In this document: one piece after another, positions 1,270-51,001 of the stretch
Layout: every line of letters begins with the position of its first letter
Position numbering within the stretch: the first letter of the stretch is position 1
Source: a virus
Lineage: Duplodnaviria; Caudoviricetes
Virus record (IMG/VR): IMGVR_UViG_3300021963_006531
Location: 1-60,088 of that record
DNA length: 60,088 bases
Direction: 5' to 3' (one strand)
The notes under the pieces: model-generated
The model's input: only the letters and a program-made list of their open reading frames with translations
Told to the model about the DNA's origin: nothing
Database searches by the model: none
Translations under genes and position numbers: made by a program

Positions 1270-1310
1270 ATCGTAGACACCGGGCAATTGGCCCCTTTTT
1301 GGAGTTCATA

Positions 1311-31093: not shown

Positions 31094-31732
31094 ATGAGTT
31101 TTACATTTGATTTTAGAAAAGACCAACTAGCACAAATTATTCCTGGCAATCCTTATTTGGATCACTGGTTCCATGCACTGGAAGAAATTTTACCGGAATA
31201 CGAAATTAATACACCACAACGTGTGGCTGCTTTCTTAGCACAATGCGCTCACGAGTCGGGCGGCTTCCGTGCATTAAAAGAAAACTTAAATTACAAAGCC
31301 GCAACATTGCGTAAAATTTTTCCTAAGTATTTTCCAGATGATGCCATAGCTAATCGTTACGCCAGTTTGCCAAATAAACAAGAAGCTATCGCTAATCGTG
31401 TTTATTGCAATCGTATGGGTAACGGTGACGAAGCTAGCGGTGACGGTTATCGTTACTGTGGTCGTGGATTAATTCAGTTAACTGGTAAAGACAATTATAC
31501 TTGGTTTGCTGCCAGTTTAGAAATACCAGTTGAAGAAGCCGCAGAATATTTGCAGACATTTGAAGGCGCTGTACAAAGTGCTTGCTGGTTCTGGGAAACT
31601 AATAATTTAAATGTCCAAGCAGATGCAGGCGATATTAAGTTAATGACCAAAAAAATCAACGGCGGCTACATTGGATTAGATGACCGCGTCAAGCATTACA
31701 ATCACGCACTACACGTTTTTGGAGCACACTAA
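31094..31732 (+). CDS. Glycoside hydrolase family 19 endolysin
   Basis: AAFLAQCAHESGGF...ENLNY...GDGYRYCGRGLIQLTGKDNY...SACWFW...TKKINGG-x-x-GL-x-DR. Confidence 0.92.
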   Translation: MSFTFDFRKDQLAQIIPGNPYLDHWFHALEEILPEYEINTPQRVAAFLAQCAHESGGFRALKENLNYKAATLRKIFPKYFPDDAIANRYASLPNKQEAIANRVYCNRMGNGDEASGDGYRYCGRGLIQLTGKDNYTWFAASLEIPVEEAAEYLQTFEGAVQSACWFWETNNLNVQADAGDIKLMTKKINGGYIGLDDRVKHYNHALHVFGAH

Positions 31733-34500: not shown

Positions 34501-34528
34501 AAAGGCAGCTTGACAGTTGCCTTTCTTT
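34501..34528 (+). terminator. Intrinsic terminator whose loop carries a -35 box
   Basis: AAAGGCAGCT-TGAC-AGTTGCCTTT followed by CTTT. Confidence 0.75.
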
Positions 34529-34538
34529 GTTATATAAT
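34510..34538 (+). promoter_or_regulatory. Perfect-consensus sigma70 promoter for a probably leaderless dnaJ
   Basis: TTGACA (34510-34515), 17 nt, TATAAT (34533-34538), 6 nt, ATG 34545. Confidence 0.88.
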
Positions 34539-34544
34539 AGTGCT

Positions 34545-35411
34545 ATGAAAGATTATTATGGAATATTGGGCGTACCAAAAACAGCAACACAGGATGATAT
34601 AAAAAAAGCCTTTAGAAAAATGGCTATGAAACATCACCCTGACCGCGGGGGCGACCAAGGTAAATTTAAAGAGATAAACGAAGCTCACGACATATTGAGC
34701 GACAACGACAAACGTATGATGGTAGATCAAGGAATTGATCCACTTAATCCAAATCAACGACAAGGACAGCATTTCCATAGTAGCGGTAGTCCTTTTGAAT
34801 TCCATTTTGGTGGTCATCCGCACATGGATGATATTTTAAGAGGGTTTGGATTTAACTTTGGTGGTCCACAATGGGGCAACCAACCTCCTAGAAAAAATAA
34901 ATCTCTTAATATTAATCTAAATGTTAGTTTAGAGGAAGTTTATACAGGGGTTACTAAAGAGTTAGAATTAACTTATCCTGGTAATAATGTAAGGTCTATT
35001 AAAATAGAAATCCCTAAAGGTGTAGACAATGGGGTAACTATTAGATATGAGGGCATGGGAGATAGGTCAAATGTTGGGTTTCCTCCTGGGGATCTTTTAG
35101 TAAATATCAATGTCATGCCACATCCTGCATTTGTTAGAGAAGGAATGAATTTATTAAGAGATGTGATGGTAGATTGTTTTTCAGCAATTACAGGCACAAG
35201 CGTAGCATTTGTCACTTTAGATGGTAGAAGACTTGAAGTCACTATCCCACCTGGAGTGCAATCTGGAACTACACTTGGATTAAAAAATGAAGGTATGAAA
35301 GACAATAAAGGTAACGTAGGAAAACTTTATGTAAGAGTCAATATACAAATTCCTACACATCTGTCAACAGAAGTTCTTGATTTAGTTGAGCAAATAAAAA
35401 ATAAAATTTAA
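34545..35411 (+). CDS. dnaJ: DnaJ-class (CbpA-like, no zinc finger) co-chaperone
   Basis: KDYYGILGV...IKKAFRKMAMKHHPDRGG J-domain, G/F-rich region, C-terminal domain with GDLLV and HP-x-F-x-REG; no CxxCxGxG repeats. Confidence 0.92.
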   Translation: MKDYYGILGVPKTATQDDIKKAFRKMAMKHHPDRGGDQGKFKEINEAHDILSDNDKRMMVDQGIDPLNPNQRQGQHFHSSGSPFEFHFGGHPHMDDILRGFGFNFGGPQWGNQPPRKNKSLNINLNVSLEEVYTGVTKELELTYPGNNVRSIKIEIPKGVDNGVTIRYEGMGDRSNVGFPPGDLLVNINVMPHPAFVREGMNLLRDVMVDCFSAITGTSVAFVTLDGRRLEVTIPPGVQSGTTLGLKNEGMKDNKGNVGKLYVRVNIQIPTHLSTEVLDLVEQIKNKI

Positions 35412-35419
35412 ATACTAGT

Positions 35420-35926
35420 ATGGCATTAACAATAATAAAATATCCAAATCCAATATTAGATGAAGTCATGCCAGATTTTGACTTTGAAAATCCAATAATG
35501 GATCCTAAAGAATTAGAAATAGACATGCTGGCTTGCATGTTTGCCAATAATGGGATTGGGCTTGCGGCTCCGCAAGTAGGTATCAAAACTAGAGTGTTTA
35601 CCATGGGACATGTTTCCATGCCTGAAAATAGTTTTGCAGTATTCAATCCAGTTATTGTTGATTGCAGTACTGATATACGTATGCTAGAAGAAGGATGTTT
35701 AAGTTTTCCTGGAGTCTACGCTAATGTTAAGCGACCATCGTGAATAGTTGCTGAGTACTTTGATAAGAATGGAGAAAAGAAAACAGATAAACTTGAAGGG
35801 TATAACTGTGTTTGTTTCTTACATGAAATGGACCACTTAAACGGAGTAGTTTTTAAGGATAGACTTAGTCAGTTAAAATGGGCGTTGGCTATTAAAAAAT
35901 CAAAGAAGGTAAAACATTATGCTTGA
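35420..35926 (+). CDS. def: Peptide deformylase interrupted by one in-frame TGA at 35741-35743 (readthrough, nonsense allele or sequence error)
   Basis: GIGLAAPQVG and EGCLSFPG precede the TGA. The same frame continues IVAEYFDKNGEKKTDKLEGYNCVCFLHEMDHLNGVVFKDRLSQLKWALAIKKSKKVKHYA to a stop at 35926, supplying the HExxH motif (168 codons including the TGA). Confidence 0.9.
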
Positions 35927-38195
35927 ACCAAACGAAGAATTAGAACAAATTTTTGAAAATGCTGTACTGACAGCCATAAACCATAAACACCAATACATTA
36001 CATTAGAGCATTTCCTCTATAGTATGGTTCGTAATCCAACTTTTAATCGTATTCTAACTGACTATGGTATTAAAGTTGACGATTTAGTTTCTAAATTAGA
36101 AAATTATATTAACAACGAGCTTATTAGTATTGTTGACATAGATTTAAATTCTAGACCAAAGAAAACAAATAGCGTAGAAAGAATGCTTAACAGAGCATTC
36201 ACACAAACACTATTTGCTGGAAGAACCACTATTGAACCATTAGATTGTTTCCTAAGCATATTACACGAAAAGAAAAGTCATGCTGCCTTCTATCTACGTA
36301 GTTCTGGGATTGAAAAAGACAAATTTATTGATTACTTAAACAAAGAGAATTTAAATCAATTGGGTGAAGAAAATGAAAATGTTCCTGAAAACAAACTAGA
36401 AGCTATCATTAATAATTTCTGTACCAATCTAAATAACAAGGTTAAACAAAAACAAATTGACCCAGTTATTGGTCGTGATAAAGAAATTGAGGAGATGCAA
36501 TTAGTACTTGCGAGACGTCACAAAGCCAATGTTATGTTGATTGGAGATCCAGGTGTTGGTAAAACTGCGCTTGCAGAAGGGTTAGCACGTAAGATTGTTG
36601 AAGGCAATGTCCCTAAGTTTATTCAAGACCATACAGTTTATACATTAGATATTAGTTCATTGCTTGCTGGTTCTAAGTATCGAGGAGATTTTGAAGAACG
36701 TCTTAAAACTGTACTTACTGCTATACAAAAACGTAAGAAAGCAATCTTGTTTATTGATGAAGCGCACATGATGAACGGTGCTGGTGCATCAAGCGGTCAA
36801 AGTAATGATATGGCAAATATGTTAAAACCTGCTTTAGCCAAAGGCGGATTTAAGGTTATTGCATCTACTACATGGGAAGAATATCGTAAACACTTTGAAA
36901 AGGATCGTGCGCTAATGCGTCGATTCCAACGTGTAACTATTGACGAGCCTAATGAAGAAACATGTATTAAGATTCTAAAAGGTCTTCGCAAATATTACGA
37001 AAAACACCATGGTGTTAAGATCACCAATCAAGCTATTCTTGATAGTGTCAAATATTCTATCAAATATATGAGTGATAAAAAGCTACCTGATAAGGCCATT
37101 GACTTGATAGATTGTGCATCAGCACGTTTTAAAGTTAAAGATGAAGAAGGCGGAGTAGTTGATCACGATGAGATTGTATTTGAAGTGGCAAAGATTACAG
37201 GACTCCCCTTGGAACAGATTGCCGCAAAAGAAACCAAAGTCTTACATGATTTAGAAACAAGTATTAAGTCGGAAGTATTTGGACAGGATACAGCAGTTGA
37301 ATCATTGCTAGACAAGATTTACATTGCACAAGCTGGTTTGAAATCACACAATAAGCCCGTTGGTAGTTTCTTATTTGTAGGACCAACTGGTTGTGGTAAA
37401 ACTGAAACTGCAAAGGTACTATCTGAAAAAATGGGTGTCAAACTTATTCGATTTGACATGAGTGAATTCCAAGAGAAACACTCCGTTGCTAAATTTATTG
37501 GTGCTCCTCCAGGATATGTAGGTTTTGAAGATAACGCAGGACAGTTAATTACTACTCTGCAAGAAAATCCAAATTGTGTATTATTGTTAGACGAAATTGA
37601 AAAAGCACACCCAGATGTAAGTAATGTATTACTTCAATTAATGGATAACGGTTTCGTAACTGGGTCCAACGGTAAGAAAGCAGATGCACGTAACGCTATT
37701 CTTATTATGACCAGTAATCTAGGCGCCGCTGATGGTGAGAAGAAGAACATTGGATTTGGTAATCAAGATAAGTTAGGTACTACTGACGAAGCGGTCAATA
37801 AATTCTTTGCTCCTGAATTTCGCAATCGTTTAGATGGCATTATTAAGTTTAAGAAACTTGAACATAGTGTTATGATTAAAGTAGTAGACAAGTTTATCAA
37901 AGAAATGAATTCTTTAGTTTCTGATAAAAATGTGTTTGTACAGTTAACTGATAGCACTAAAGAATTCTTAATTGAAAAAGGATTTGATCCTAAGATGGGT
38001 GCTAGACCAATGCAACGAGTAATTGATGATAAAATTAAGCGTCCTCTAAGTAGAGAGATCTTATTTGGTCGATTAATCAACGGTGGTATTGTACAAGTAG
38101 CGTATGTAAACAATGATCTAGTATTTGAATATATGGATCCACTACCAATTGCACCAAGTGTACCAGTTCAAGATGAAGAAATCATTGAAGATTAA
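35919..38195 (+). CDS. clpA: ATP-dependent Clp protease ATP-binding subunit ClpA
   Basis: Clp N-domain (HQYITLEHFL), AAA1 GDPGVGKT/FIDEAH, AAA2 GPTGCGKT/LLDEIEKAHPDV, IGF ClpP-docking loop, MGARP; no ClpB middle domain. Confidence 0.93.
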   Translation: MLEPNEELEQIFENAVLTAINHKHQYITLEHFLYSMVRNPTFNRILTDYGIKVDDLVSKLENYINNELISIVDIDLNSRPKKTNSVERMLNRAFTQTLFAGRTTIEPLDCFLSILHEKKSHAAFYLRSSGIEKDKFIDYLNKENLNQLGEENENVPENKLEAIINNFCTNLNNKVKQKQIDPVIGRDKEIEEMQLVLARRHKANVMLIGDPGVGKTALAEGLARKIVEGNVPKFIQDHTVYTLDISSLLAGSKYRGDFEERLKTVLTAIQKRKKAILFIDEAHMMNGAGASSGQSNDMANMLKPALAKGGFKVIASTTWEEYRKHFEKDRALMRRFQRVTIDEPNEETCIKILKGLRKYYEKHHGVKITNQAILDSVKYSIKYMSDKKLPDKAIDLIDCASARFKVKDEEGGVVDHDEIVFEVAKITGLPLEQIAAKETKVLHDLETSIKSEVFGQDTAVESLLDKIYIAQAGLKSHNKPVGSFLFVGPTGCGKTETAKVLSEKMGVKLIRFDMSEFQEKHSVAKFIGAPPGYVGFEDNAGQLITTLQENPNCVLLLDEIEKAHPDVSNVLLQLMDNGFVTGSNGKKADARNAILIMTSNLGAADGEKKNIGFGNQDKLGTTDEAVNKFFAPEFRNRLDGIIKFKKLEHSVMIKVVDKFIKEMNSLVSDKNVFVQLTDSTKEFLIEKGFDPKMGARPMQRVIDDKIKRPLSREILFGRLINGGIVQVAYVNNDLVFEYMDPLPIAPSVPVQDEEIIED

Positions 38196-39349: not shown

Positions 39350-39433
39350 TTTCAATCCCGTAGGTTTTAAAATAAATACATGATGCAAAGCCGTCAAGTA
39401 TATTTGCGGCTATATAATCAGTAGAGAAAAATA

Positions 39434-39781
39434 ATGAAATTACTTGAATTCTTCAGCAAAGCAAACTCGGATGATGATGACGCTAAGATTGAGACCGATC
39501 TAAAAAAAGATTTAATGGGCTTTATTCTTGACGATGATGAACTATACAAAGAACACATTCTTCCCCTTGTATCAAAACTTAAAAAAGGCAAGGATGTTGA
39601 AAAGGAAGATTTCATGAAAGCAATCAATCAAGGATGCTTAAAGTTCTATAAAGAAAAAGAGTTTAAAAAAGATCCTAACAAAATGTTCCCAATTAAGATG
39701 CGAAAGGAAATGGCAGGAGATTTATTAACCATCAATACCAAAGGCTCAAAAAAAGATGAAAATTCAAGAACTACTGATTGA
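39434..39781 (+). CDS. Hypothetical protein with capsid-targeting-like N-terminus (MKLLEFF)
   Basis: First gene after TAAATA at 39373-39378; N-terminal motif shared with downstream genes. Confidence 0.7.
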   Translation: MKLLEFFSKANSDDDDAKIETDLKKDLMGFILDDDELYKEHILPLVSKLKKGKDVEKEDFMKAINQGCLKFYKEKEFKKDPNKMFPIKMRKEMAGDLLTINTKGSKKDENSRTTD

Positions 39782-40142
39782 GAGTATTATAAAGCCTGAC
39801 TTATTGAACATGTTCCTAAAACATTGTTCTGAAGAATTAGGACTCGAATCTTTGCCTGAGATAAATCTTGTTGATGATAAACAATACTCCATTGATCATA
39901 AATCTTTTGGAGGTTATCAACCGGGAAAGCAATCAATTATATTAGCTACCAAAGATAGACACCCTGTAGATATTTTTAGAACATTGGCACATGAACTAAC
40001 ACATTATAAACAAGATTTAGATGGACAATTAGAAGATGATAATGTAGGCGACACTGGTAGCCCACAAGAAAATGAAGCCAATGCAAGGGCAGGAATAATA
40101 ATGCGTAATTTTGGTCAGAAGTTTCCAGAAGTATTTGAATAA
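39756..40142 (+). CDS. HExxH zinc-metallopeptidase-like protein with capsid-targeting-like N-terminus
   Basis: MKIQELLIES; RTLAHELTHYKQ and downstream E-x-EANA-x-AG. Confidence 0.7.
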   Translation: MKIQELLIESIIKPDLLNMFLKHCSEELGLESLPEINLVDDKQYSIDHKSFGGYQPGKQSIILATKDRHPVDIFRTLAHELTHYKQDLDGQLEDDNVGDTGSPQENEANARAGIIMRNFGQKFPEVFE

Positions 40143-40150
40143 GGTCCGAT

Positions 40151-41167
40151 ATGCGTATTAAAGAATTATTTGAAGGAGGGTGGGATACCACAAAAACACA
40201 GAGTACAGAGTTAACACCTTCTGTAGTACGTGTGGCCCTTGGTGTGGTAGATCAATTTGTTAAAGACTTCAATAATTATACTAATTCACAAGGTATACCT
40301 CCAATACAGCGTGGTAAGCCAACAGGTAGTACTGCATACTATGAGCAAGACGAAGTAGAAAAACCAGATAACATTTACGGCGACATTGATCTTCAAATGA
40401 TTGCACCAATCAAAGAAAATGAAACAAATGCACAATTTACCAGTTACTGGAATAATTTAACTGATCAATTTGCAAAAAGTGGTCAAGTAAATTATATAGA
40501 TACCAGTGAAAGTAAACCAGGACATCCTATTATTCAAGTTGGACGTGATCAATTTGTACAAGTAGATTTTATGTGGCATCCAGGTAAATTAGCTAGATGG
40601 GGCGCGGCACGTGTAACTCCAGAGCGTGGCGTTAAAGGTATGTTATTTGGTAATATGTTTAGTGTTTTTGGTGAATTATTAGACATGAGTATACAACATG
40701 CTGGAGTACAATTAAAAGTTGTTGATGATCAACGTGTTCCATTTAGTAAGCAAAAAGGAACACAATTGATAACTGTTACTATTGAACCAGAAACGTTTGT
40801 ATTAGATACATTTAAATATCTTGCAAAAAGGATGGGTATTGATAATCCTAAAATTGATCCTTTGTTGTCAAAATTTCCTGGTAATAATATAAATGATGTT
40901 AAAATTTCCACATTAGTAAACTCTGTTAAAGGATTTGCTGCCAGTGCTCAAGCAAATGGAATGTTTGGTAAAAATGATTTAAGTAATTTTGCGTCAGGAC
41001 AGGATTTCTTAAATAAATTTTTGCAAAGATATGAAGAAAAAGCTATGATAGATGTACAAGGCAAAAAACGTGACAAAGCAACAACCCCAGAGGCACAGGC
41101 ACGTGCAGAAGCAGATAAACAAAAGATACTAAGTGGTCTTGAAATGGTTAAAGGATTATTCCAATGA
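40151..41167 (+). CDS. Pol-beta-superfamily nucleotidyltransferase with capsid-targeting-like N-terminus
   Basis: MRIKELFEGG; PTGST...YGDIDLQM...VQVDFM (GS, DxD and third Asp). Confidence 0.7.
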   Translation: MRIKELFEGGWDTTKTQSTELTPSVVRVALGVVDQFVKDFNNYTNSQGIPPIQRGKPTGSTAYYEQDEVEKPDNIYGDIDLQMIAPIKENETNAQFTSYWNNLTDQFAKSGQVNYIDTSESKPGHPIIQVGRDQFVQVDFMWHPGKLARWGAARVTPERGVKGMLFGNMFSVFGELLDMSIQHAGVQLKVVDDQRVPFSKQKGTQLITVTIEPETFVLDTFKYLAKRMGIDNPKIDPLLSKFPGNNINDVKISTLVNSVKGFAASAQANGMFGKNDLSNFASGQDFLNKFLQRYEEKAMIDVQGKKRDKATTPEAQARAEADKQKILSGLEMVKGLFQ

Positions 41168-41541
41168 GAGCAAGAGAATTTGTAAATGAGGCGACAGAAA
41201 AGAAAATAACAAATAGGCAGGGCCAATCTCTTGCTGGTTTGAACGTTTATACTGACGCTGAAAAAAGAGATGCAACTTATGTATCTTATAGATTGGGAAT
41301 GGCTGTAGCAGGAACAGATGGTGAAATTGTTCCAGATACTGATGCTAGGAGTTGGATTGGCAAACAAAAATCAACACACCCTTATACTCCTGAAGAACAG
41401 GAAATGCTCAAAGTAGCTTACAAAGTAGTTGGTGCAGAATATACAGATTTGACAAAGGGCGATATGAAAAGTCGAGAACTAAAAACTACCAATACTGTTA
41501 GTCCTGTAGCAAAAATTAAAAAGAACAAGTACGGTGTATAA
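41164..41541 (+). CDS. Hypothetical protein with capsid-targeting-like N-terminus
   Basis: MRAREFVNEA; ATGA coupling. Confidence 0.7.
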   Translation: MRAREFVNEATEKKITNRQGQSLAGLNVYTDAEKRDATYVSYRLGMAVAGTDGEIVPDTDARSWIGKQKSTHPYTPEEQEMLKVAYKVVGAEYTDLTKGDMKSRELKTTNTVSPVAKIKKNKYGV

Positions 41542-42374
41542 TGAAAATAACTGAACTATTATTTGAAAGTGGGAAACGACTTGCCAAGCAAGGTATTGAA
41601 ATATCTAGAGTAGACAAAGTTGCCTTTCTAAAAGCCAAATCTATTTTAGATCCAATACTGAAAAAAGCTAAACTAAAGGCTGGTTGGACTGCTGGAGGTG
41701 CTGGTAGTTTTGATCCTGAACATCCTTATGGTGGCGGTGGCAGAGATGACAGTGGTGACATTGATATCATGATAGATCCAGAAAATCTTTTAAGAAGTTT
41801 TCCACCAAACATTGAAGAATATAATAGAGCAAGTCCAAAACCACTTGGTCCAAAAGCTATGGCTAACACATTAGCTGATCCAAATAAAAAAGCAAGATTA
41901 GAATTAGCTGCCAGTAAATGGGCATTGGCAACTTATATGACTCAAAATGGACTTCCAACTGATCCAGGAACACTTACTGTAGAATATAGTGCTGACGGTA
42001 AAAGTCATTCAGTAGACTTAATTGTTCGTCCAGAGAGTGCATGGGAATTACATGCACATGATTTCACTAGGGATCCTGAAATGAAAGGCGGACAACTGTT
42101 TACAGACGTGTATCCAACATTGGTTAAACTAGCCAGCAAATCTACTTTTGTAGATCCAAAGACTGGAGAAGAAAAAGGAAGTTTACAGTACAGTCCAGAT
42201 AGAGGACTAGTAGATAGAGAAACTAATCAAGTGGTTGCTATCAACAAGAACGATATTGCAAAAATACTTTTAGGACCACAAGCTACTGCAAGAGATATGT
42301 CTAGCATTTCTGGCATTAGAGACGCTCTAAAAAATGATCCAGCAAAGTTAAGTCAAGTTTTCCCTCAAAGTTAA
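41541..42374 (+). CDS. Second Pol-beta-superfamily nucleotidyltransferase with capsid-targeting-like N-terminus
   Basis: MKITELLFES; GGAGSF...SGDIDIMI...HSVDLIV. Confidence 0.65.
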   Translation: MKITELLFESGKRLAKQGIEISRVDKVAFLKAKSILDPILKKAKLKAGWTAGGAGSFDPEHPYGGGGRDDSGDIDIMIDPENLLRSFPPNIEEYNRASPKPLGPKAMANTLADPNKKARLELAASKWALATYMTQNGLPTDPGTLTVEYSADGKSHSVDLIVRPESAWELHAHDFTRDPEMKGGQLFTDVYPTLVKLASKSTFVDPKTGEEKGSLQYSPDRGLVDRETNQVVAINKNDIAKILLGPQATARDMSSISGIRDALKNDPAKLSQVFPQS

Positions 42375-42391
42375 ACAAATAAATACATATT

Positions 42392-45028
42392 ATGAACTTA
42401 TTTGAACTGTTTAAACCTGTTAAAAACATTATTATGGAAGGCATTGACCATCCAGAAGACCTCATTATTTCGCAAGGTAGTGCAGGTGCCGACAGAGTTT
42501 TGGCAGATTTATCCAGCTTACAAAAAGATCCAAGTACAATCAGTGTTAAATGGGACGGGTTTCCAGCAGTAGTGTTTGGTAGAGATAGTACAGGCAAACT
42601 TGTTTTCATGGACAAACACATGTATGACAAGGTAGTCAAAGGTGCTATGGAATTTATGTCCATTAAAGATTATGACATATCTAGAGAAGCTAATCGTGGC
42701 AACCTTTGGGAAACAGAAAGTGCATTGCGTCCTACATTAGATAAAATTATTCCTAACGTAAAAGATCAATATTGGATGGGAGACTTGATGTGGACTGGTA
42801 CTCCTAAAACTTCTGATGGCTACTTTGTTTTTAAACCTAACACCGTAGAATATCGTGTTAAAATTGATGATACTCCTGGACGTGGCAATACATTAAGCGA
42901 TCAAATCGCACGTAGTATTGGTGGTATTGCGGTACATACTTTTATTCCTGGTCTTGGTCAATCAGACCAACCATTGATTGGCTTAAAAGGTTTAAGAGAA
43001 AACGAAGGAATTGTTTTTCTTGTAGGAGAAATGAGAGACAAACCAAAAGTTGGAATTAATTCAGCTTTATTAAATCAAACTAAGGCTATTATTAGTCAAC
43101 ACAGAACAGCCGTTGATAAATTTATTTCAGATCTAACAGCAATGAAGGGCAAAGCAGTTATTACTGCCATGGGGCCTTTTATTACACGTATGCTTGAAGA
43201 AGATGATATATCTGGTAATATTGTTCCAAGATTTTTAGAATTTCTAAAAGAGCGTCTAAATGACACTGCACAAAATAAATTTTTAGGCGCTAAGAAAGAC
43301 GGTTGGTTATATCAAGAACAGGGCGGTGGTCCAGGACTATTAGGTATTTGGACAATGTGGGCCGCAATTACAGAATTAAAAACTCACATAAAACAACAAA
43401 TTGACACACAGCAACAAGGTAGTGAAATTATTGCTATAACTGATGGTGTTAATGCACACGAAGGTTATGTATTTGGTTCAGGAAAAGACAAATTAAAATT
43501 AATTGATCGTTTAGGTTTTAGTCGTGCTAATTTTGCTAAACATCGTGTACCAGATGATGAAATAGAAGCAAAGAGCAAAATGCCAATGGCAACTTTTTGT
43601 TTTGGTCGTATGAATCCTCCAACACTTGGTCACGGACTTGTGATACAAAAAACTTTAGAAGTAGGTGGTGAAAATTCTTTTATCTTTTTAAGTAATAGCC
43701 ACGACGCTAGTGAAAATCCAATTGATCCAACTACTAAAGCACAATTTGTAGCGCAAATATATCCTAACGCAGCCGACAAACTTGTACAAGATTTTGTACA
43801 AGGACCAATATATGCAGCCAATTGGTTATATAGTAAAGGTTTTAGAAATATGACATTTGTTGCAGGTAGCGATAGATTAGGAAAAGAAAAAGGTAGTATT
43901 GAAAAACTTTTAACCAGTTGGAACAGTGGTCCAATACGCTCCACAGATCCTGCAGGTGCAAGAGAGCATGTTGTTATTAAATTTGAGAGTAGCGGTCAGC
44001 GTGATCCTGATTCCGAGGGGGTGACCGGTTACAGTGGAACAAAAGCTCGCCAAGCGGCGGAAACTGGCAACGAGCAGTTATTCCAGAAATATACAGGTGT
44101 TGGTCCTGACGTCGTTGTAAACGGCAAAACATTATATCAAGCAACAAGAGAAGGTATGGGGATTAAAGATGAAAAACCAACAGCCCAGTCATCTCCTGTT
44201 AAGCAACCTGCTCAACCCAATTTACAAGTAACTAAAAAAGTTCCAGGCAAGGCTCCAATTAGTAAGGAAGTAGATTCTATGAACGAATCAAAACTACGCG
44301 ACAAAGAAGATTTAAAAGCAAAACGTAAGGCTCTGCAAGATATCCAGATGGATAAACATACACATAAAGATCCAGAATTAAAAGCAGAACTAGCAAGAAG
44401 AAAAGCGTCTTTAGAAAAAGAAGCAAAGAAAATGAATCTGTCTGAATCAATCGTCCACGCATACGGTATTTTTGAAGAACAACAATCATTCTTAGACAAA
44501 ATAAAATCAGCTTTTAAAAGCCAAAGTCCTGTAAATGATAAAGTAAAGTATGGTGATACTGCTTATCCCAAATCACCTTTACAACCAGTAAGAGATAAAT
44601 TTCAATCAGGAACATTGGATGTTAATCCAGATAGTACCATTGGAAGATTAAACCAGCGCAATGCCGCAATAAAAGCAGCCGGTGATGAAGCCAATGAAGA
44701 TCGTGTTAAAATGGCTGCTAGAAAAAATGTGTCTGAAGCACCGATCCAAATGGACCCAGACAATCCAAACGATCCAATGGTCATGCCTCCTGGACTTAAC
44801 CCAGGCAAACTAAGTTATAGAAAAGCAAGAGCGGCTGCACAATTAGCAGACCTTGCACGGATGGCTGCTGAAGCAAATGAAAAAAATAGTGCTATAATGT
44901 GGGACTCAATCGTTAGACACTTTCCTGAATTAGAAACAAATATTCGTAGCATTCAACACGGACAAGACGAATTACAAAAATTAAGAAGCAAAGGCGGAGT
45001 GCGTAGTAGGGGCATAGACAAAATATGA
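42392..45028 (+). CDS. Fusion protein: ATP-dependent ligase-like domain, HxGH-type nucleotidylyltransferase and modular tail
   Basis: SVKWDGFP (KxDG motif I), MGDLMW, HEGYV (motif IV), KLKLIDR (motif V); then FGRMNPPTLGH...VAGSDR...SGTKAR. Confidence 0.7.
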   Translation: MNLFELFKPVKNIIMEGIDHPEDLIISQGSAGADRVLADLSSLQKDPSTISVKWDGFPAVVFGRDSTGKLVFMDKHMYDKVVKGAMEFMSIKDYDISREANRGNLWETESALRPTLDKIIPNVKDQYWMGDLMWTGTPKTSDGYFVFKPNTVEYRVKIDDTPGRGNTLSDQIARSIGGIAVHTFIPGLGQSDQPLIGLKGLRENEGIVFLVGEMRDKPKVGINSALLNQTKAIISQHRTAVDKFISDLTAMKGKAVITAMGPFITRMLEEDDISGNIVPRFLEFLKERLNDTAQNKFLGAKKDGWLYQEQGGGPGLLGIWTMWAAITELKTHIKQQIDTQQQGSEIIAITDGVNAHEGYVFGSGKDKLKLIDRLGFSRANFAKHRVPDDEIEAKSKMPMATFCFGRMNPPTLGHGLVIQKTLEVGGENSFIFLSNSHDASENPIDPTTKAQFVAQIYPNAADKLVQDFVQGPIYAANWLYSKGFRNMTFVAGSDRLGKEKGSIEKLLTSWNSGPIRSTDPAGAREHVVIKFESSGQRDPDSEGVTGYSGTKARQAAETGNEQLFQKYTGVGPDVVVNGKTLYQATREGMGIKDEKPTAQSSPVKQPAQPNLQVTKKVPGKAPISKEVDSMNESKLRDKEDLKAKRKALQDIQMDKHTHKDPELKAELARRKASLEKEAKKMNLSESIVHAYGIFEEQQSFLDKIKSAFKSQSPVNDKVKYGDTAYPKSPLQPVRDKFQSGTLDVNPDSTIGRLNQRNAAIKAAGDEANEDRVKMAARKNVSEAPIQMDPDNPNDPMVMPPGLNPGKLSYRKARAAAQLADLARMAAEANEKNSAIMWDSIVRHFPELETNIRSIQHGQDELQKLRSKGGVRSRGIDKI

Positions 45029-46254
45029 AAATTACACAATTATTAGAAGGCAGCAAGCCTCAAAAAATTCCTGCAAGTAAACCACGAAACTTTGTGGTCA
45101 AGAATCAGCAGACCAGTGGCGCTGGCTCACATAAAGACAAAAAGAAAGCAGCCAAGCAGGGTGATGTTAAGCATAAAAATAAAGACATGGAAATGTCTGA
45201 AGACCATTTAAACGAGTACGGCGATACTGCTAAAGGTCAGAAGATGCTGACTAAAGTTCAAAAACGTGCAGTAGATCGTGTAACAAGTAAACGAGCAGAC
45301 ACTGATCCTAAGTACGCTAAAAAGAATAGTGATACCGCTAATCGTGCTTGGGATAGAATGACAGACAAAGATTTAGAAGAAACTTTTGATGATGTTAAAG
45401 ATACTGTTGCAAAAGTTGGTGATAAAGTTAGCGACACCTTATCAAATATCTTACCAAAAGATATGCGACCTTTTGATAATGAAACAGCCGCAAAAAATGC
45501 CGCAACAAATTCTGCGGCATTTAAACCAGTTGTGAAGACTGCATCAGTAACACAAAAACCAATTAAAGAATCTAAAGTTTACGAGCAATATGTTGGCAAT
45601 GGCTCTAGTAAAAATATGCAAATGGCTGTTGACCAAGCCAAGATGCACGCCAAGATACAGGCTATGAGAGCAATACACGGTAACAATTTTCATGATAAAG
45701 AAATGGTTGCACATGAATTTGGAAAATTAGATATTCAAAGTGATGGTAAAGGCGGTTATAAAGTCAATGCTCCCATTACTGTACTACAACCAAAATCTAA
45801 TTCCATAGATAGCAGTCCAGCAACTAATAACATTTCTAACCCACCCAACAGTTATATGGATAGCAGTCCTGCTAAAGATAATGGAACAACTACTAGTAAA
45901 ATGTCTCCTATGGAAAGCATGGCAGACAGTATAGTTAAAGAAATGAATAGAAATCCAGACTTAATGAGTCAAAGCGATTATGATCGTTATCAACAAAGCC
46001 AAATGGATAATCAGAAACGCAATTTCAAACGTGACGAATTAGAACATGAACTTAGTCACGAAGACAGAGGTATGTATTGGGTTGTGGTTGCAAAAAATGG
46101 TAAATGGGAACATACTAAAGCACAGCCTAAACAAGAAGGTATGAATGCGGCCATGCGTTTGATTAGTGCATTGCATAGTAAATATCCAGGCATGCACTTA
46201 GGTATGCAATATCCTAATGGGCAAGTAGAAAATTTTGGAAAAGGTAGAAAGTAA
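45025..46254 (+). CDS. Modular low-complexity protein with capsid-targeting-like N-terminus
   Basis: MKITQLLEGS; Lys-rich patches separated by hydrophobic-x-E sites. Confidence 0.7.
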   Translation: MKITQLLEGSKPQKIPASKPRNFVVKNQQTSGAGSHKDKKKAAKQGDVKHKNKDMEMSEDHLNEYGDTAKGQKMLTKVQKRAVDRVTSKRADTDPKYAKKNSDTANRAWDRMTDKDLEETFDDVKDTVAKVGDKVSDTLSNILPKDMRPFDNETAAKNAATNSAAFKPVVKTASVTQKPIKESKVYEQYVGNGSSKNMQMAVDQAKMHAKIQAMRAIHGNNFHDKEMVAHEFGKLDIQSDGKGGYKVNAPITVLQPKSNSIDSSPATNNISNPPNSYMDSSPAKDNGTTTSKMSPMESMADSIVKEMNRNPDLMSQSDYDRYQQSQMDNQKRNFKRDELEHELSHEDRGMYWVVVAKNGKWEHTKAQPKQEGMNAAMRLISALHSKYPGMHLGMQYPNGQVENFGKGRK

Positions 46255-46255
46255 A

Positions 46256-46690
46256 ATGGACAAGTATCATTTAGCACTAAAGACAGCATTTGCTAGTGAA
46301 TATGCTTTTTATTTAAAGGCACAAAATTTCCATTGGAATGTAGAGGGAATGTTCTTTGAACAATTTCACAGTTTGTTTGGAAAAATTTATGAGGAAGTAG
46401 GTGATGTCATTGACGACTTTGCAGAAAATTTACGCAAAGTCAATGCTTATGCACCTGCTAGTTTTAGAAGATTCAGTATGCTCAGCGAAATAGATGACGA
46501 AACAGAAATCTTAGAAGCAACAAGTATGTGTGCTACCCTTCTAGCTGATAGTGAAAAAATGGAAGAGATTTTTAAAATCACTTATCAAATGGCAGAGGAT
46601 AATAGAGATTTTGGTCTAGCTAACTTCCTAGCAGAACGTCAAGATGCACATGCTAAACATAGTTGGATGTTAAGAGCCACGTTAAAATGA
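46256..46690 (+). CDS. dps: Dps / ferritin-like DNA protection protein
   Basis: YLKAQNFHWNVEG-x-x-F-x-x-x-H-x-LF...D-x-x-AE...H-x-KH-x-WML. Confidence 0.9.
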   Translation: MDKYHLALKTAFASEYAFYLKAQNFHWNVEGMFFEQFHSLFGKIYEEVGDVIDDFAENLRKVNAYAPASFRRFSMLSEIDDETEILEATSMCATLLADSEKMEEIFKITYQMAEDNRDFGLANFLAERQDAHAKHSWMLRATLK

Positions 46691-46983
46691 AACAGTACAG
46701 AGTCACTTCAGAAAATATAAACCTAAGTAGCGATGATGATTGCTATTTAGATCCAAACGATCCTATAAATGAAATCAAAGTATTACAGCATTTAGGTGGA
46801 ATCAATTCTGTAAGTAGACTACAAGAGTATCGCTTATCTCAGCAAGAAAGCAATATTAGTACTACTGCTAATGAAAATGCAAAGTTAATGAGGGAACACA
46901 ATATTAAACCTGGAACCCCTGAGTGGTTCCAACTTTGGTTTAGTTTACCGTATATGACTGGTGAAAAGAAGGTTGAAAAATGA
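46687..46983 (+). CDS. Hypothetical protein
   Basis: ATGA coupling at both ends; NIKPGTPEWFQLWF motif. Confidence 0.7.
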   Translation: MKQYRVTSENINLSSDDDCYLDPNDPINEIKVLQHLGGINSVSRLQEYRLSQQESNISTTANENAKLMREHNIKPGTPEWFQLWFSLPYMTGEKKVEK

Positions 46984-48044
46984 AAATACAAGATTTATTA
47001 GAGTTTGCTCCAACAGTGGATAAAGACTCAGCATTAGGAAAAGTATTAGGAAACCCTGATGTTCAAAACACTATTGACAAAATAGGTAATTCATTGTCCA
47101 ATGTATTCAAACCATCAGTTGAGAAAGGCGCCGATGTTGAACCTAAAAATACTGATAAGAAAACTTCAAAAAGTAAATCAAGTAGATCAGTGGATATTTC
47201 AGATATGGAGCCAGAATTTGAAAGACAAGGTATTAAAGACCCATTTGTAAAAAACGCATTGATGGGCAAGTTTCATCAAGAAGCAGGTGCAAAATTTGGT
47301 ACTACTGAGATTCCGTTTACTAACACATCAAATAAAAGAATTAAAGAAAAGTTACCGCAGTTAGCTGGTATGAATGATGACGAATTAAATGCACTTAAAG
47401 CAGATCCTAGAGCATTTTTTAATAGAGCATATGGCGGAGTATTAGATAATACTGGACCAGATGACGGTTACAAATTCCGTGGTCGTGGATTAACTGGATT
47501 AACTGGTAAAACAAATTATTCGGCTGCTTCACAAGCACTGTTTGGTGATGACAGATTAGTTAAAAATCCTGATTTACTTTTAGATCCTGAAGTAGACAAA
47601 AAGGCAGCAGTATGGTATTATAAACGTGCTGGTGCAGATAAAGTATCATTTAGTAATCAAGAAGACGCCAATATTTGGGCAATACACAAAGCTGGTGGTA
47701 AAGCCTATGCTCCAGGAACTAAGTTAGGAAATATTGCACTTGCTGATCTTAATAATAAAACTGGAAATATGACCAGTGGTACTGGCACTATGGTTGCTAA
47801 AGGCGGAGACAATACTGGCAAAATAATTGCAGGCAGTACTTTATTGGCTAAAGCAGATGAATTGATAAACAAATATAAAACAGAGTTGCCTAAATTTATA
47901 TCTTCAATTAGTGACTTATCTGGGGGTGAAGATGAAGTTGCTGTAATAATTAATGGTAAGAAAAAGAAATTTAAGAATAAAAAAGAAGCTGAACTAGCAA
48001 TAAAGTTAGCCAAAGATCAAGGACTTACAGTAGATTATGCGTAA
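46980..48044 (+). CDS. GH19/lysozyme-like hydrolase with capsid-targeting-like N-terminus (candidate virion-associated lysin)
   Basis: MKIQDLLEFA; HQEAG...DDGYKFRGRGLTGLTGKTNY...LVKNPDLL...AAVWYY. Confidence 0.75.
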   Translation: MKIQDLLEFAPTVDKDSALGKVLGNPDVQNTIDKIGNSLSNVFKPSVEKGADVEPKNTDKKTSKSKSSRSVDISDMEPEFERQGIKDPFVKNALMGKFHQEAGAKFGTTEIPFTNTSNKRIKEKLPQLAGMNDDELNALKADPRAFFNRAYGGVLDNTGPDDGYKFRGRGLTGLTGKTNYSAASQALFGDDRLVKNPDLLLDPEVDKKAAVWYYKRAGADKVSFSNQEDANIWAIHKAGGKAYAPGTKLGNIALADLNNKTGNMTSGTGTMVAKGGDNTGKIIAGSTLLAKADELINKYKTELPKFISSISDLSGGEDEVAVIINGKKKKFKNKKEAELAIKLAKDQGLTVDYA

Positions 48045-48681
48045 ACCAGAAGTTTATTTAGATATGGATGGTGTTATAGCAGACTTTTTTACAGAGTATG
48101 CTAAACTTGCTGGCATTGAAAATGGCAACTATAGAGATATACCTCCAGCAAAAACTGATCCAACATTGAACAAAATGATTGGAACAGACTTCTTTGCTAG
48201 ACTACCAAAATGTCCTAATGCAGACGCTCTAGTAGATATGATAGTGAAAACTTTTGGATACTATCATATCTGTTCAAGTCCTCTAAGAGGAGACTTTGAA
48301 AACAGTGAAAAACAAAAGAAGATTTGGTTAAAGAAGAATTTAAAGCATCAACCAACTGATGTTATCATTACACCTAATAAGGCCAAATATGCTGTTCAAT
48401 CAGACGGAACTCCTAATATACTAATAGATGACAGGGGTAGTAATATTAGTGCTTGGGAGGCAAAAGGCGGTATTGGTATCAAATATCAAGCAGATGAAGA
48501 TAGTTTACAAGTTGTCATTGACGGAATAAAAAGAGCCTTTCAAGTAATTAAAGGTGAACAGAAACACGAACCTCAAAAGCTACAAAGTTTAGATCGAAGT
48601 AGCGGCAACTTAATTGCGAAAAGTGGCGATGATGAAGAACACGGTTCTACTTCTAAGATACCAGGTAAGGAACAACAATGA
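48037..48681 (+). CDS. HAD-family 5'(3')-deoxyribonucleotidase-like phosphatase
   Basis: YLDMDGVIADF, ICSSP, K-x-x-W, NILIDD...NI-x-x-W-x-x-x-GG-x-GI. Confidence 0.85.
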   Translation: MRKPEVYLDMDGVIADFFTEYAKLAGIENGNYRDIPPAKTDPTLNKMIGTDFFARLPKCPNADALVDMIVKTFGYYHICSSPLRGDFENSEKQKKIWLKKNLKHQPTDVIITPNKAKYAVQSDGTPNILIDDRGSNISAWEAKGGIGIKYQADEDSLQVVIDGIKRAFQVIKGEQKHEPQKLQSLDRSSGNLIAKSGDDEEHGSTSKIPGKEQQ

Positions 48682-49490
48682 AAATTTCAGAATTATTAAC
48701 AGAAGCTGATATGCCTGAATCTCTAAAGGATATACCTGTGGTAAGTTTTGGTGATTATAAACTAACTGCTGGAGATGTTGCAGATGTATTACCGGGTGTT
48801 GGACCAGAAGATGTAATTGAGCAAGGAAAATATTTAAAAGATTTTCTTTCAACAAAAATTAAAGGCGATTATACAAGAGCAGATGCATTAATTGACATAG
48901 CAACGTTTTATCCAGCTTTTAGAATCAGCAAGTGGGCACTAGCGGCACGTGGTGGTGCAGGAGCCGCAGGTAAAGAAGTTGCCAAAGGAGCCTTAAGAAG
49001 AGAAGTTGGTCAACAGGTACAACAAAAAGCAGACATACTTCCCTCAATGAAAGACTCTAAAAAATCAGGATCAGGCGGAGTTTCGCCAATAGCTACTAAA
49101 ATAACATCTCCATCTAGAAAAAGAAAATATAAAGTAGGAGATCAAGTTCCAGTTGAAGTCAAAGGCAAACAAGAAGTGGGAGTCGTGTCTAATGTATTGC
49201 CTAATGGTTATGAAGTTGATATTAGTCATGTAAAAGATTCTCCGTCAAAATCAGTTAATATCCCTGAACCCATGTTTGAAGAAGCCAGCGCAGGCGCTAC
49301 TTCCGCAGGTAATATTGCCAGTACAGGGAATAGTCCTCATATAGCCGCAGGAACTCCAGCTGTTTTAAAACGATGGAGTGGGGAACCCGGAAAAATAGGA
49401 AAAAGCATTAAGCCTCCCAAAACAGAACCTCAAGATTCTGACGATAATCCTGTGACAAATCCCAAAGTTGGCAACAACTTAATTTCATAA
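48678..49490 (+). CDS. Hypothetical protein with capsid-targeting-like N-terminus
   Basis: MKISELLTEA; internal MFEEASAGATSAGNIA. Confidence 0.7.
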   Translation: MKISELLTEADMPESLKDIPVVSFGDYKLTAGDVADVLPGVGPEDVIEQGKYLKDFLSTKIKGDYTRADALIDIATFYPAFRISKWALAARGGAGAAGKEVAKGALRREVGQQVQQKADILPSMKDSKKSGSGGVSPIATKITSPSRKRKYKVGDQVPVEVKGKQEVGVVSNVLPNGYEVDISHVKDSPSKSVNIPEPMFEEASAGATSAGNIASTGNSPHIAAGTPAVLKRWSGEPGKIGKSIKPPKTEPQDSDDNPVTNPKVGNNLIS

Positions 49491-49513: not shown

Positions 49514-50926
49514 ATGCCTTTTAAGAGTAAAAAACAAAAAAGAACCATTGATGCGGCAGCACATAACCCTGCTTTTGCAAAGAAAGTAGGAATCAAGACC
49601 AGTGATGCTAAAAAAATGTCTGCACATGGCAAGGGTCAAACTAAGTTTGAAGAAGCTAAGGATACTGTAGAAAAAGATGAAAAAGGCAACGTCAAATCAT
49701 GGAAGCATGAGGGCGATTGGAAAAAATCAAACGACAAAGAAGGGCGTGGCAAAGTGACTAATTTAAGTGATAAAGCTCGTCGCAAGACAGAGAAATTAAG
49801 TAAAGCAGAAAAGGAAATGGCTGAAGCATTTGAAAATGCTATTTCAGAAGTTACTATTACTTCAGGCCCAAATAAGGGTAAGCAGTGGAGCCCAAAAAAT
49901 CCAGGACCAACAAATAAAAATTATAAAGAAATTGATGGCAATATACCAAGTCCACCAGATGGAGCAACTGCACCTCCTCCAGGATATAAGCCACCGCAGC
50001 CAAAGTCAAATAAAAGTTCGGCAGTAAATTCAGATGATGCAGAAATGACTGCTGAAGCAAAACAAACTTACGGTGGTAAAGGAAAACAAATGACTAAATC
50101 ACAACATGATGCTGATGTAAAGAAAAAGAAAGAAAAAGAAAAAATGAAAAAAATGGCTGAGGCATTTATTCAAATTGGCCGTTTAGAACAAATGATCTTT
50201 GAAGCTAAAAAGACTAAAAATAAAGAAGAGACTCCAAAAGAAGGCAATGCTTTCGGTGATGCTGTTCGTAAAGCTAAAGAAGACGGTATACAAAAAGGTG
50301 AAAAAGTCAAAGTAGGTGGCAAAGAATATCCAGTCAAAGAATCAAGCAAAGATAAAGAATGCAACCATACACCAAAAGGTAAAAAATGTCCAGTGCATGG
50401 ATTAAAAGAGTGCGGAATGTATGAAGGCAACGATGGTAATCTAGCTAACAATGCTAAACCATACGACAAAGTAACACGTGGTGATGTTATTGCTGGACGC
50501 TTGGGTAAAGACGAAATGGGTGGTAAGAAGAAAAACAAAAAAACTACTGAAACTTTTATGCCAGTAAAACCAAAACAACCTACACCATCTCCAATTGACC
50601 CAATCAAAAAAGGTTTTAAAAAAGTAGCTGATAAAATTCTAGATAAAGATCCAAAACCAAAAAGTGACATTGGGGATAAAAATATACCTGAACCAACTAC
50701 AAAACCTTTAGAAAAATCTTACGACGAATTTAATGAAGGATATACAATTAACGGAAAGAAAGTTTCTAAAGCTGCCTATGAAAAAGAAATGTCAAAAGCA
50801 GGAAAAGGAAAGAAAAAAGTAAAAGAAGGGTGGACTCATGATAGTTTAGCCGCACAACTTTTTGAAAACGGTGACGAATACGTTGTATCACTCCACAACA
50901 GATTGGCGAAACAGTTAAAAGGTTAA
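49514..50926 (+). CDS. Lys/Glu-rich modular protein, probable head-internal/core protein
   Basis: TAAATA (49491-49496) and GGAG upstream; many hydrophobic-x-E sites. Confidence 0.65.
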   Translation: MPFKSKKQKRTIDAAAHNPAFAKKVGIKTSDAKKMSAHGKGQTKFEEAKDTVEKDEKGNVKSWKHEGDWKKSNDKEGRGKVTNLSDKARRKTEKLSKAEKEMAEAFENAISEVTITSGPNKGKQWSPKNPGPTNKNYKEIDGNIPSPPDGATAPPPGYKPPQPKSNKSSAVNSDDAEMTAEAKQTYGGKGKQMTKSQHDADVKKKKEKEKMKKMAEAFIQIGRLEQMIFEAKKTKNKEETPKEGNAFGDAVRKAKEDGIQKGEKVKVGGKEYPVKESSKDKECNHTPKGKKCPVHGLKECGMYEGNDGNLANNAKPYDKVTRGDVIAGRLGKDEMGGKKKNKKTTETFMPVKPKQPTPSPIDPIKKGFKKVADKILDKDPKPKSDIGDKNIPEPTTKPLEKSYDEFNEGYTINGKKVSKAAYEKEMSKAGKGKKKVKEGWTHDSLAAQLFENGDEYVVSLHNRLAKQLKG

Positions 50927-50934
50927 ACCAATGT

Positions 50935-50960
50935 AACAGGGCACTAGTTGCCCTGTTCTT
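50935..50960 (+). terminator. Stem-loop terminator closing the late cluster
   Basis: AACAGGGCA-CTAGT-TGCCCTGTT followed by CTT. Confidence 0.75.
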
Positions 50961-50972
50961 ACGACTTGAGTA

Positions 50973-51001
50973 TTGACATTGCATAACTACTCTGCTACAA
51001 T
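50973..51001 (+). promoter_or_regulatory. Sigma70-type promoter with extended -10
   Basis: TTGACA (50973-50978), 17 nt ending in TGC, TACAAT (50996-51001). Confidence 0.8.

Follow-up and report, generated by a model that had tools for sequence, protein, structure and literature searches.

The internal proteins IPI–III and the enzyme Alt of phage T4 carry a capsid targeting sequence (CTS), for which MKTYQEFIAE is given (PMC8442874, in excerpt). Ten residues suffice to target a protein, the prohead protease gp21 cleaves after L/I-x-E, and the 70-kDa enzyme Alt is packaged via this same route (PMC9026906, in excerpt). Phage polyvalent proteins are multi-domain enzymes that were proposed to travel with invading DNA (Iyer et al. 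2017, PMC5512222, in excerpt). Here we analyze an open reading frame (ORF) whose product combines a leader resembling the T4 CTS with two putative nucleotidyltransferase domains. It lies at 42392..45028 (+ strand) of a 60,088-nucleotide stretch of virus DNA (Duplodnaviria; Caudoviricetes; record IMGVR_UViG_3300021963_006531, positions 1 to 60,088), hereafter called the window. The window is a large T4-type myovirus fragment (35–38% G+C) containing PHROG tail and baseplate-wedge family matches, a 3,418-residue ORF, a B-family DNA polymerase and a clamp loader. The record consists of the window alone, with an estimated completeness of 17%; the longest contig in the target protein's own cluster measures 148,651 bases. 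The target ORF is open and encodes 878 amino acids (aa) in four parts, namely a leader (residues 1–16), a DUF6267 domain (17–385), a (T/H)xGH nucleotidyltransferase domain (~399–600) and a tail (601–878).

We consider it the best explanation of this locus, at a probability of about 0.45, that the protein belongs to a leader-tagged enzyme set that is loaded into the virion in order to process and seal the ends of nucleic acids. In this scheme, the 16-residue leader would act like the T4 CTS and bring the protein into the prohead, a gp21-type prohead protease would remove it after I14-M15-E16, and the mature enzyme would enter the cell along with the DNA. K53 would accept a nucleotidyl moiety, in all likelihood AMP, and transfer it to a 5′-phosphate end, so that broken RNA or DNA could be sealed or marked after an upstream Pol-β-type enzyme has added or filled in nucleotides. 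The HxGH domain might make or regenerate an adenylylated small molecule for the ligase step, with NAD+ as the leading candidate, or might alternatively act on another phosphorylated substrate. A bolder version, which we regard as doubtful, holds that DUF6267, as a new branch of the ligase superfamily, forms, together with the Pol-β-type and HxGH enzymes, a self-contained repair or end-modification machine of T4-type aquatic phages that is preloaded into the capsid by means of the CTS-like tag and injected with the genome. Such a machine would therefore meet incoming DNA or host RNA ahead of phage gene expression, and the HxGH module would produce NAD+ or a similar dinucleotide in place as the AMP donor.

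In architecture, the end-processing sets LigD (polymerase–phosphoesterase–ligase), Pol X plus ligase of African swine fever virus and Pnkp plus Rnl1 of T4 are comparable in that a nucleotide-adding enzyme and a ligase-type enzyme (here joined by a HAD phosphatase in some homologues) occur in one protein or operon, but all three component families differ and the HxGH module has no counterpart there. The likeness to the CTS of IPI–III and Alt concerns a peptide of ~9–16 residues with the form M-K-x-x-(Q/E)-E/L-hydrophobic-hydrophobic-x-E, which ends in L/I-x-E and in both cases is common to unrelated, fast-changing, clustered genes. Nine genes including large enzymes are tagged here, whereas T4 has three or four, and both targeting and cleavage are predictions for this phage. 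A link to polyvalent proteins is provided by one DUF6267 homologue that carries an ART-PolyVal domain; the putative delivery tag is a T4-style leader here and a MuF or portal fusion there, and the excerpt of PMC5512222 mentions no comparable covalent ligase-type or HxGH domains.

The leader (42392..42439, + strand; MNLFELF...IIME) ends in an I-x-E site directly before G17 and, with the predicted cleavage point marked by a slash, reads MNLFELFKPVKNIIME/G. Residues 1–15 were disordered in the AlphaFold2 (AF2) model (predicted local distance difference test, pLDDT, below 50). In close homologues, M-x-L-x-E-L-F is retained, as is a hydrophobic-x-E immediately ahead of GIDHPEDL, while the spacer separating the two contains indels. 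Leaders of the type M-K-I-x-E-L-L-x-E recur in a nine-gene array on the same strand (39434..49490), in which three untagged genes are interspersed. The tagged genes start at 39434, 39756, 40151, 41164, 41541, 42392, 45025, 46980 and 48678 and share the N-terminal consensus M-(K/R/N)-(I/L/A)-x-(E/D/Q)-(L/F)-(L/F/V). A six-frame scan found this consensus ten times, nine of them at gene starts, against 0.575 expected from mononucleotide shuffles; because the consensus had itself been built from these data, the figures overstate its significance, while the clustering does not. Under a looser pattern, 9 of the 12 + strand ORFs of at least 60 aa between 39400 and 49000 were tagged, compared with 0 of 62 elsewhere in the window. 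Homologues of the stand-alone type carried the leader in 46/50 cases for HxGH and in 23/47 for DUF6267; for fused forms the count was 29/44, and for homologues of the upstream gene 9/27. The array gene starts are preceded by 20-base stretches that differ from one another, so the leader is conserved at the protein level. The earlier note on this DNA, made from the letters without database searches, had missed both the leader on nine genes and the recurrent fusion with the upstream Pol-β-type gene described below.

We infer, with good motivation and one indirect published support, that the leader is a candidate capsid-targeting propeptide and that the protein may be loaded into the capsid. The published support concerns the cyanophage S-SZBM1, for which liquid chromatography–mass spectrometry of CsCl-purified virions listed the "cytidylyltransferase" S-SZBM1_140 and its neighbour _139 (PMC9146016, in excerpt). 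S-SZBM1_140 is 27% identical to the second domain of the target protein (E 3e-16) and has the N-terminus MRFRQFIIE. Furthermore, a gp21-type protease (PF03420) was found in three of five relatives' records, including a syntenic 214-kb one, the two records without it being only 21–22% complete. The fusion of DUF6267 to ART-PolyVal, a domain of phage polyvalent proteins, in homologue P0168 was also counted toward delivery.

Several observations weigh against capsid loading. The window, whose completeness is put at 17%, yielded no prohead protease. The detection of S-SZBM1_140 amounted to two peptides and 13.5% coverage, and the DUF6267 protein of the same phage, S-SZBM1_141, is absent from the main text and hence from the virion table (PMC9146016, as far as excerpted). 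S-SZBM1_141 bears no leader, and neither do the P-HM2 proteins. Of all nine leaders, the target's own is the least typical, and the ~50%-identical relatives L019, L021 and L026 begin with MAGIAHPED instead of a leader; the first residue of the fusion in these three corresponds to the predicted N-terminus of the mature protein. Promoters likewise gave no sign of late expression: the octamer TATAAATA, which we take to be the T4 late-promoter core, did not occur on either strand of the window, against 8.55 expected (standard deviation 2.61). The related search for AATAAATAC gave two sites against 1.69 expected and thus no enrichment; these lie at 39371..39379, 55 bases before the first array gene, and at 42378..42386, six bases before the target gene.

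Some of these points would fit an alternative that we rate as possible but rather unlikely. The enzymes would be the same, would stay in the cytoplasm after synthesis during infection instead of becoming virion cargo, and the leader would have another role, be it in translation efficiency, as a recombination handle by which genes are shuffled in a hyperplastic region or as a recognition tag for the neighbouring phage ClpB/DnaJ chaperones. Apart from the leaderless homologues and the missing S-SZBM1_141, this account could draw on the position of the array, which adjoins DnaJ, peptide deformylase and a ClpB-like ATPase in conserved order and away from the head genes, and on the size of an 878-residue two-enzyme protein that would have to pass the tail channel. 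Against this alternative, the leader is conserved as protein behind differing upstream bases, ends in the L/I-x-E form of a gp21 site and bears a close resemblance to the T4 CTS. Moreover, purified virions contained an HxGH homologue with a leader (PMC9146016, in excerpt), and T4 Alt shows that a 70-kDa enzyme can be packaged likewise (PMC9026906, in excerpt).

The virion-loaded enzyme set that we favour would have its sealing activity in the DUF6267 domain (42440..43546, + strand, residues 17–385), which was delimited by Pfam, the AF2 model, VIA-align and invariant motifs. Pfam PF19782 (DUF6267) covers residues 18–383 (E 4.6e-33), and Pfam and NCBIfam gave no further family matches for this domain up to E 10. 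A library-wide HMMER search yielded 719 cluster representatives that match DUF6267 at E ≤ 0.001. All 71 of 71 matching phage records are labelled "hypothetical protein", and a full-text literature search for DUF6267 came back empty. When 48 stand-alone members of the family were aligned, most of them 25–35% identical to the query, H20, D23, K53, D55, G56, G63, D131, Y154, K330, E357, G358, K369 and R373 were invariant; K53, D55 and G56 were also unchanged in 45 of 45 fused forms. The earlier note had proposed a ligase-like domain followed by an HxGH nucleotidyltransferase on the basis of short motifs. All of these were recovered in the order claimed, both in the first domain (KWDG 53–56, GDL 130–132, EGYV 357–360, KLK 367–369) and in the second (FGRMNPPTLGH 404–414, VAGSDR 490–495, SGTK 548–551), and residues conserved across the DUF6267 and HxGH homologue alignments mark them as other than chance strings.

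The AF2 model of the DUF6267 domain, computed from the 48-sequence alignment, reached a mean pLDDT of 90.8 and a predicted TM-score (pTM) of 0.88. In this model, K53 of motif I (K53-W-D55-G56) ends strand 51–53, which points to K53 as the predicted nucleotidyl-lysine of a KxDG motif (codon 42548..42550, + strand). The residues of motifs III, IIIa, IV and V also sit on strands: D131 in strand 126–135, E357-G358 at 358–361 and K369 in 368–370, with F147 and Y154 of motif IIIa invariant or nearly so. A 118-residue helical insert (residues 224–341) separates the motif IIIa strands from motif IV. After motif V, only two short helices (373–394) precede the HxGH fold.

Structural comparison of the model with VIA-align over 48,161 representative chains, carried out independently of Foldseek, placed covalent nucleotidyltransferases on ranks 1 to 25. 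The best match was the Naegleria RNA ligase NgrRnl (5cot; Z 7.9, rmsd 4.3, 189 residues aligned), accompanied by REL1 (Z 6.8), T4 Rnl2 (6.7), LigIV (6.5), T4 Rnl1 (6.5) and Trl1 (6.4). When Foldseek's top 1,000 chains were rescored with VIA-align, 50 of the 50 rows listed were ATP-dependent RNA or DNA ligases, headed by NgrRnl 6vt0 (Z 8.1, rmsd 3.9, 186 residues aligned); that the best Z is only moderate is explained by the 118-residue insert. Ligases also recurred among the Foldseek PDB rows with probabilities of 0.4–0.66. It is thus well supported that residues 17–385 adopt a predicted covalent (lysine) nucleotidyltransferase fold of the ATP-dependent ligase type, because the structural lists are uniform, the non-helical core is covered and the invariant residues fall exactly on motifs I, III, IV and V. 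The proposal of a ligase-like N-terminal domain was borne out in this respect.

On the other side of the balance, Foldseek against the PDB gave no E-value below 0.076, and the ligase-type assignment therefore rests on VIA-align and the motifs. Searches of PDB sequences with the whole protein and with the DUF6267 profile returned nothing relevant and no ligase, the Pfam profiles RNA_ligase and DNA_ligase_A_M did not match even at E up to 10, and hhalign put the probability of a match between the DUF6267 alignment and T4 Rnl2 at 0.09. A Z of about 8 is "middling" by VIA-align's own scale. The putative equivalence of K53 to the catalytic lysine rests on motif order and strand position. Motif III carries an aspartate (D131) where ligases have glutamate, and in motif V (KxK) the second lysine (K369) alone is invariant, the first not being kept in the family. 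A scan of the T4 genome with the DUF6267 profile likewise found nothing.

Compared directly with the ATP-dependent RNA ligases, the domain is predicted to share the fold (Z 8.1 for NgrRnl (Rnl5), 6.5–6.7 for T4 Rnl2, 7.1 for trypanosome REL1) and preserves the lysine, acidic and EG residues in motifs that follow one another as in those enzymes (I, III, IIIa, IV, V). It differs in having no detectable sequence similarity, in the aspartate of motif III, in the single conserved motif V lysine and in the additional invariant residues H20, D23, K330 and R373. A C-terminal OB domain with motif VI is not present in the AF2 model, and the protein is therefore predicted not to belong to the DNA-ligase and capping-enzyme subset. 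RNA ligases share this lack of an OB domain and have a helical accessory module in its place, but their module is appended, whereas that of DUF6267 is inserted between motifs IIIa and IV. In the model, a nucleotidyltransferase core plus helical module is nearer in build to the RNA ligases. Neither RNA nor DNA was singled out as the substrate by these results, and the RNA repair suggested in the earlier note stays a putative role.

This architecture bears on a second alternative, which we hold to be quite unlikely, in which DUF6267 would be a substitute nick-sealing DNA ligase of T4-type phages devoid of gp30, with the HxGH domain supplying the cofactor. The complete genomes of P-HM2 and S-SZBM1 gave no match to PF01068 or PF01653, while the T4 control has PF01068; DUF6267 could therefore stand in for DNA ligase in cyanophages, as far as gene content goes. 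PF01068 was also not found in a 61%-complete record (G001), and PF01653 was found in none of the five records. LigIV appears among the structural matches (Z 6.5–6.7), and a Pol-β-type partner would fit a fill-and-seal scheme. Yet a complete 372-kb relative (G002) has a canonical ATP-dependent ligase (PF01068, E 5.6e-12) in addition to a DUF6267–HxGH fusion, the model does not include the OB domain that every DNA ligase has, and RNA ligases head its structural matches. Furthermore, a capsid-loading tag would be superfluous on a replicative enzyme.

In the enzyme set proposed to be carried by the virion, the ligase-type domain is followed by a (T/H)xGH nucleotidyltransferase domain (43586..44191, + strand, residues ~399–600) with TLGH at 411–414 and SGTKAR at 548–553. 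PHROG "cytidyltransferase" families match it at 1.9e-31 and 8e-21, and Pfam CTP_transf_like scored 15 bits, under its 21-bit cut-off. Across 51 aligned homologues, the residues of G-R-M-N-P-P-T-x-G-H each show conservation of 90% or more, and SGTKAR has an invariant S and an invariant R. We take TxGH to be the phosphopantetheine adenylyltransferase (PPAT) form of the HxGH motif, and G-R-M-N-P-P-T-x-G-H presumably resembles the GRFQPxHxGH motif of archaeal and NadM nicotinamide mononucleotide (NMN) adenylyltransferases (NMNATs). The AF2 model built on the 51 sequences had a pLDDT of 88.2. Foldseek placed PPAT first (E 3.4e-5, probability 1.0), and VIA-align gave PPAT 4nah a Z of 12.0 (154 residues aligned), the NadM NMNAT 2qjo 11.9 and the archaeal NMNAT 1f9a 11.8. 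The HxGH fold of PPAT and NMNAT can thus be regarded as secure for residues ~399–600 at the level of the model, and the class named in the earlier note stands on the Foldseek and VIA-align results and on both signature motifs. With PPAT (CoaD) and NadM or archaeal NMNAT, the domain shares a Rossmann-type fold (Z 11.8–12.0 over ~155 residues) as well as TxGH and SxTxxR, but it is only 11–17% identical to them and is covalently joined to a ligase-type domain, a combination of which we found no description in the literature looked at. Elsewhere in the window, a second, unrelated HxGH enzyme (26850..27254, 134 aa) matches the PHROG family heptose 1-phosphate adenylyltransferase at 4.9e-32.

The earlier note had further suggested that the HxGH domain might be an NMN adenylyltransferase that rebuilds NAD+ after a host NADase defence. 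The Z values of NadM and archaeal NMNAT and the likeness to GRFQPxHxGH would agree with this idea, but PPAT ties with the NMNAT structures (12.0 against 11.9) and leads in Foldseek, and the sole NCBIfam NMNAT match, to the NadM model, is weak (E 0.2). A cyanophage homologue (31.5% identity) was annotated in silico as NMNAT by the authors of S-SCSM2R (PMC12801897, in excerpt). In contrast, Pfam and PHROG scans showed no NMN-making partner enzyme in the window, and restoration of NAD+ would not account for the obligate link between this domain, a ligase-type domain and a Pol-β-type enzyme; we therefore regard it as improbable.

This link was evident from gene organization. In total, 241 proteins of 482–1,537 aa, on contigs of up to 381 kb, match query residues 1–610 at E ≤ 1e-3, and all 120 matches listed span at least 75% of the query. 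DUF6267 and HxGH are adjacent genes in the cyanomyophages P-HM2 (PHM2_162/163) and S-SZBM1 (_141/_140), and the gene order is kept in P-HM2, S-SZBM1 and HTVC008M. A 76%-identical relative (L034, 7666..10019) has two ORFs in place of the fusion, one with leader and DUF6267 and the other, untagged, with HxGH and tail. Relatives thus do encode the two domains separately, a point on which the earlier note had proposed a check, and by their arrangement DUF6267 and the HxGH domain form a unit.

The putative third enzyme is encoded by the upstream partner gene (41541..42374, + strand, 277 aa), which has its own leader MKITELLFE and Pol-β-type motifs. Over its full length, its product shows 36% identity to residues 1–279 of P0125 (E 2e-46), a three-domain fusion in which the upstream-gene domain is followed by DUF6267 and HxGH. 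The residues invariant in this family (G55-S56, D73-x-D75 and D159) fit what we take to be the signature of Pol-β nucleotidyltransferases. Neither phmmer and profile searches of the PDB nor Pfam on 28 family members found anything relevant for the upstream protein, and leads from the ESM Atlas (NTP_transf_2 cluster 0.94, DNA_pol_B_palm 0.85) were not confirmed by sequence searches. A complex prediction of the 1–610 core with the upstream protein scored 0.00, a "no answer" that is evidence in neither direction. When 150 DUF6267 representatives were annotated with hidden Markov models (HMMs) from the alignments made in this analysis, 67 were stand-alone, at least 31 had the upstream-gene domain, mostly N-terminally, and ~18 had HxGH. 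Fusion or adjacency of DUF6267 and HxGH recurs in many large T4-type phages, as does fusion of DUF6267 with the upstream-type gene, and because the fusions recur, a functional coupling of the three putative nucleotidyl-transfer enzymes is strongly supported.

For the HAD phosphatase that the earlier note had counted into an end-healing kit (48037..48681, + strand, 214 aa, no leader), the outcome was divided. A link to the system gains some support from P0111, which unites DUF6267, HxGH, DUF5661 and a C-terminal NT5C domain in a single polypeptide. However, the window protein matches Pfam NT5C (E 7.8e-6, 26.3 bits, cut-off 24.8) and the PHROG "5′-3′ deoxyribonucleotidase" (1e-21), that is, a deoxyribonucleotidase family and no known polynucleotide end-healing family.

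A different kind of fusion is seen in P0168, which combines a CTP_transf-like domain, DUF6267, ART-PolyVal and sigma-70 region 4 in one protein. All structural neighbours of the DUF6267 domain are polynucleotide ligases or capping enzymes, and, self-nucleotidylylation aside, covalent nucleotidyltransferases with this fold are not known to modify other proteins. Against this background, an injected host-takeover effector that nucleotidylylates a protein or small molecule, with no joining of nucleic acids, appears highly improbable, even though P0168 connects DUF6267 to a polyvalent-protein ADP-ribosyltransferase and sigma-70 region 4, polyvalent proteins are multi-domain effectors delivered with DNA (PMC5512222, in excerpt) and the DUF6267 family lacks one motif V lysine.

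If the reading as a virion-loaded, end-processing enzyme set is correct, DUF6267, which is found in cyanophages and pelagiphages as well as in numerous large phages known only from uncultured material, would gain a biochemical identity as a ligase-type enzyme, and the "cytidylyltransferase" in purified cyanophage particles would be explained. The capsid-targeted internal proteins of the T4 type would then extend from small inhibitors to whole enzyme sets, and the leader would represent a short natural tag for loading enzymes into the capsids of marine and freshwater phages.

The target protein ends in a basic, K/E-rich tail (44192..45028, + strand, residues 601–878 and stop codon; pI 9.6) for which no Pfam or NCBIfam family match was found. 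It is variable or absent in homologues, whose length ranges from ~580 to 1,464 aa around a common core of ~600 residues, and its residues ~769–878 are 77% conserved in L034. Within residues 615–677 (44234..44422), a stretch of ~40–60 residues is 57–69% identical to part of unrelated proteins of 854, 635 and 305 aa on other viral contigs (L042, L043, L046, L047) and, judged by this distribution, looks like a small mobile module.

The leader array lies in a syntenic position between DnaJ, peptide deformylase and ClpB-like genes and the DNA polymerase, and its content varies among relatives. Loci of T4 internal proteins likewise vary in content (PMC3012670, in excerpt). Among the tagged products are one that resembles metallopeptidases (39756), two with Pol-β-type motifs (40151, 41541) and one of GH19-like type (46980). 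GH19-type lysozyme-like genes occur twice in the window, as a plain endolysin (31094..31732) beside a holin-like gene and as the leader-tagged gene 46980..48044 of the array. Among the untagged genes, to which the NT5C-like gene also belongs, a Dps/ferritin-like gene (46235..46690; Pfam Ferritin, 6.3e-19) is kept in the array in relatives. Directly upstream of the array are the genes for DnaJ-like, peptide deformylase and ClpB-like AAA+ proteins (34527..38195). This order is kept in four relatives (L002, L017, L034, L035), and L019, L021 and L026 retain the DnaJ-like and ClpB-like genes; a link between the phage chaperones and the tagged proteins is possible.

Outside the array, the 3,418-aa ORF (1299..11555) shares the N-terminal motif …INIG…G.GD.(L/I)R.AF.K.N.N with ORFs 11555..11830 and 16306..19443, the former of which matches the PHROG "baseplate wedge tail fiber protein connector". 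To judge from this motif, the three are probably fibre proteins with a common docking end. An N4-like reading of the 3,418-aa ORF was dropped, as its N-terminal motif is also found in the two neighbours matching PHROG tail families.

The last gene on the array side (49514..50926) encodes a 470-aa lysine-rich protein whose first ~50 residues match "virion structural protein" PHROGs and whose residues 298–435 match PHROG 764 "cytidyltransferase" (5e-8); it has no similarity to S-SZBM1_139. Sigma-70-like sites were fewer in the window than in shuffles. At 50935..51001, a 9-bp hairpin directly follows gene 49514..50926, and a near-consensus sigma-70-like promoter (TTGACA-17-TACAAT with TG, 11/12) lies between this hairpin and 51028. 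Hairpin and promoter together possibly mark a boundary between transcription units.

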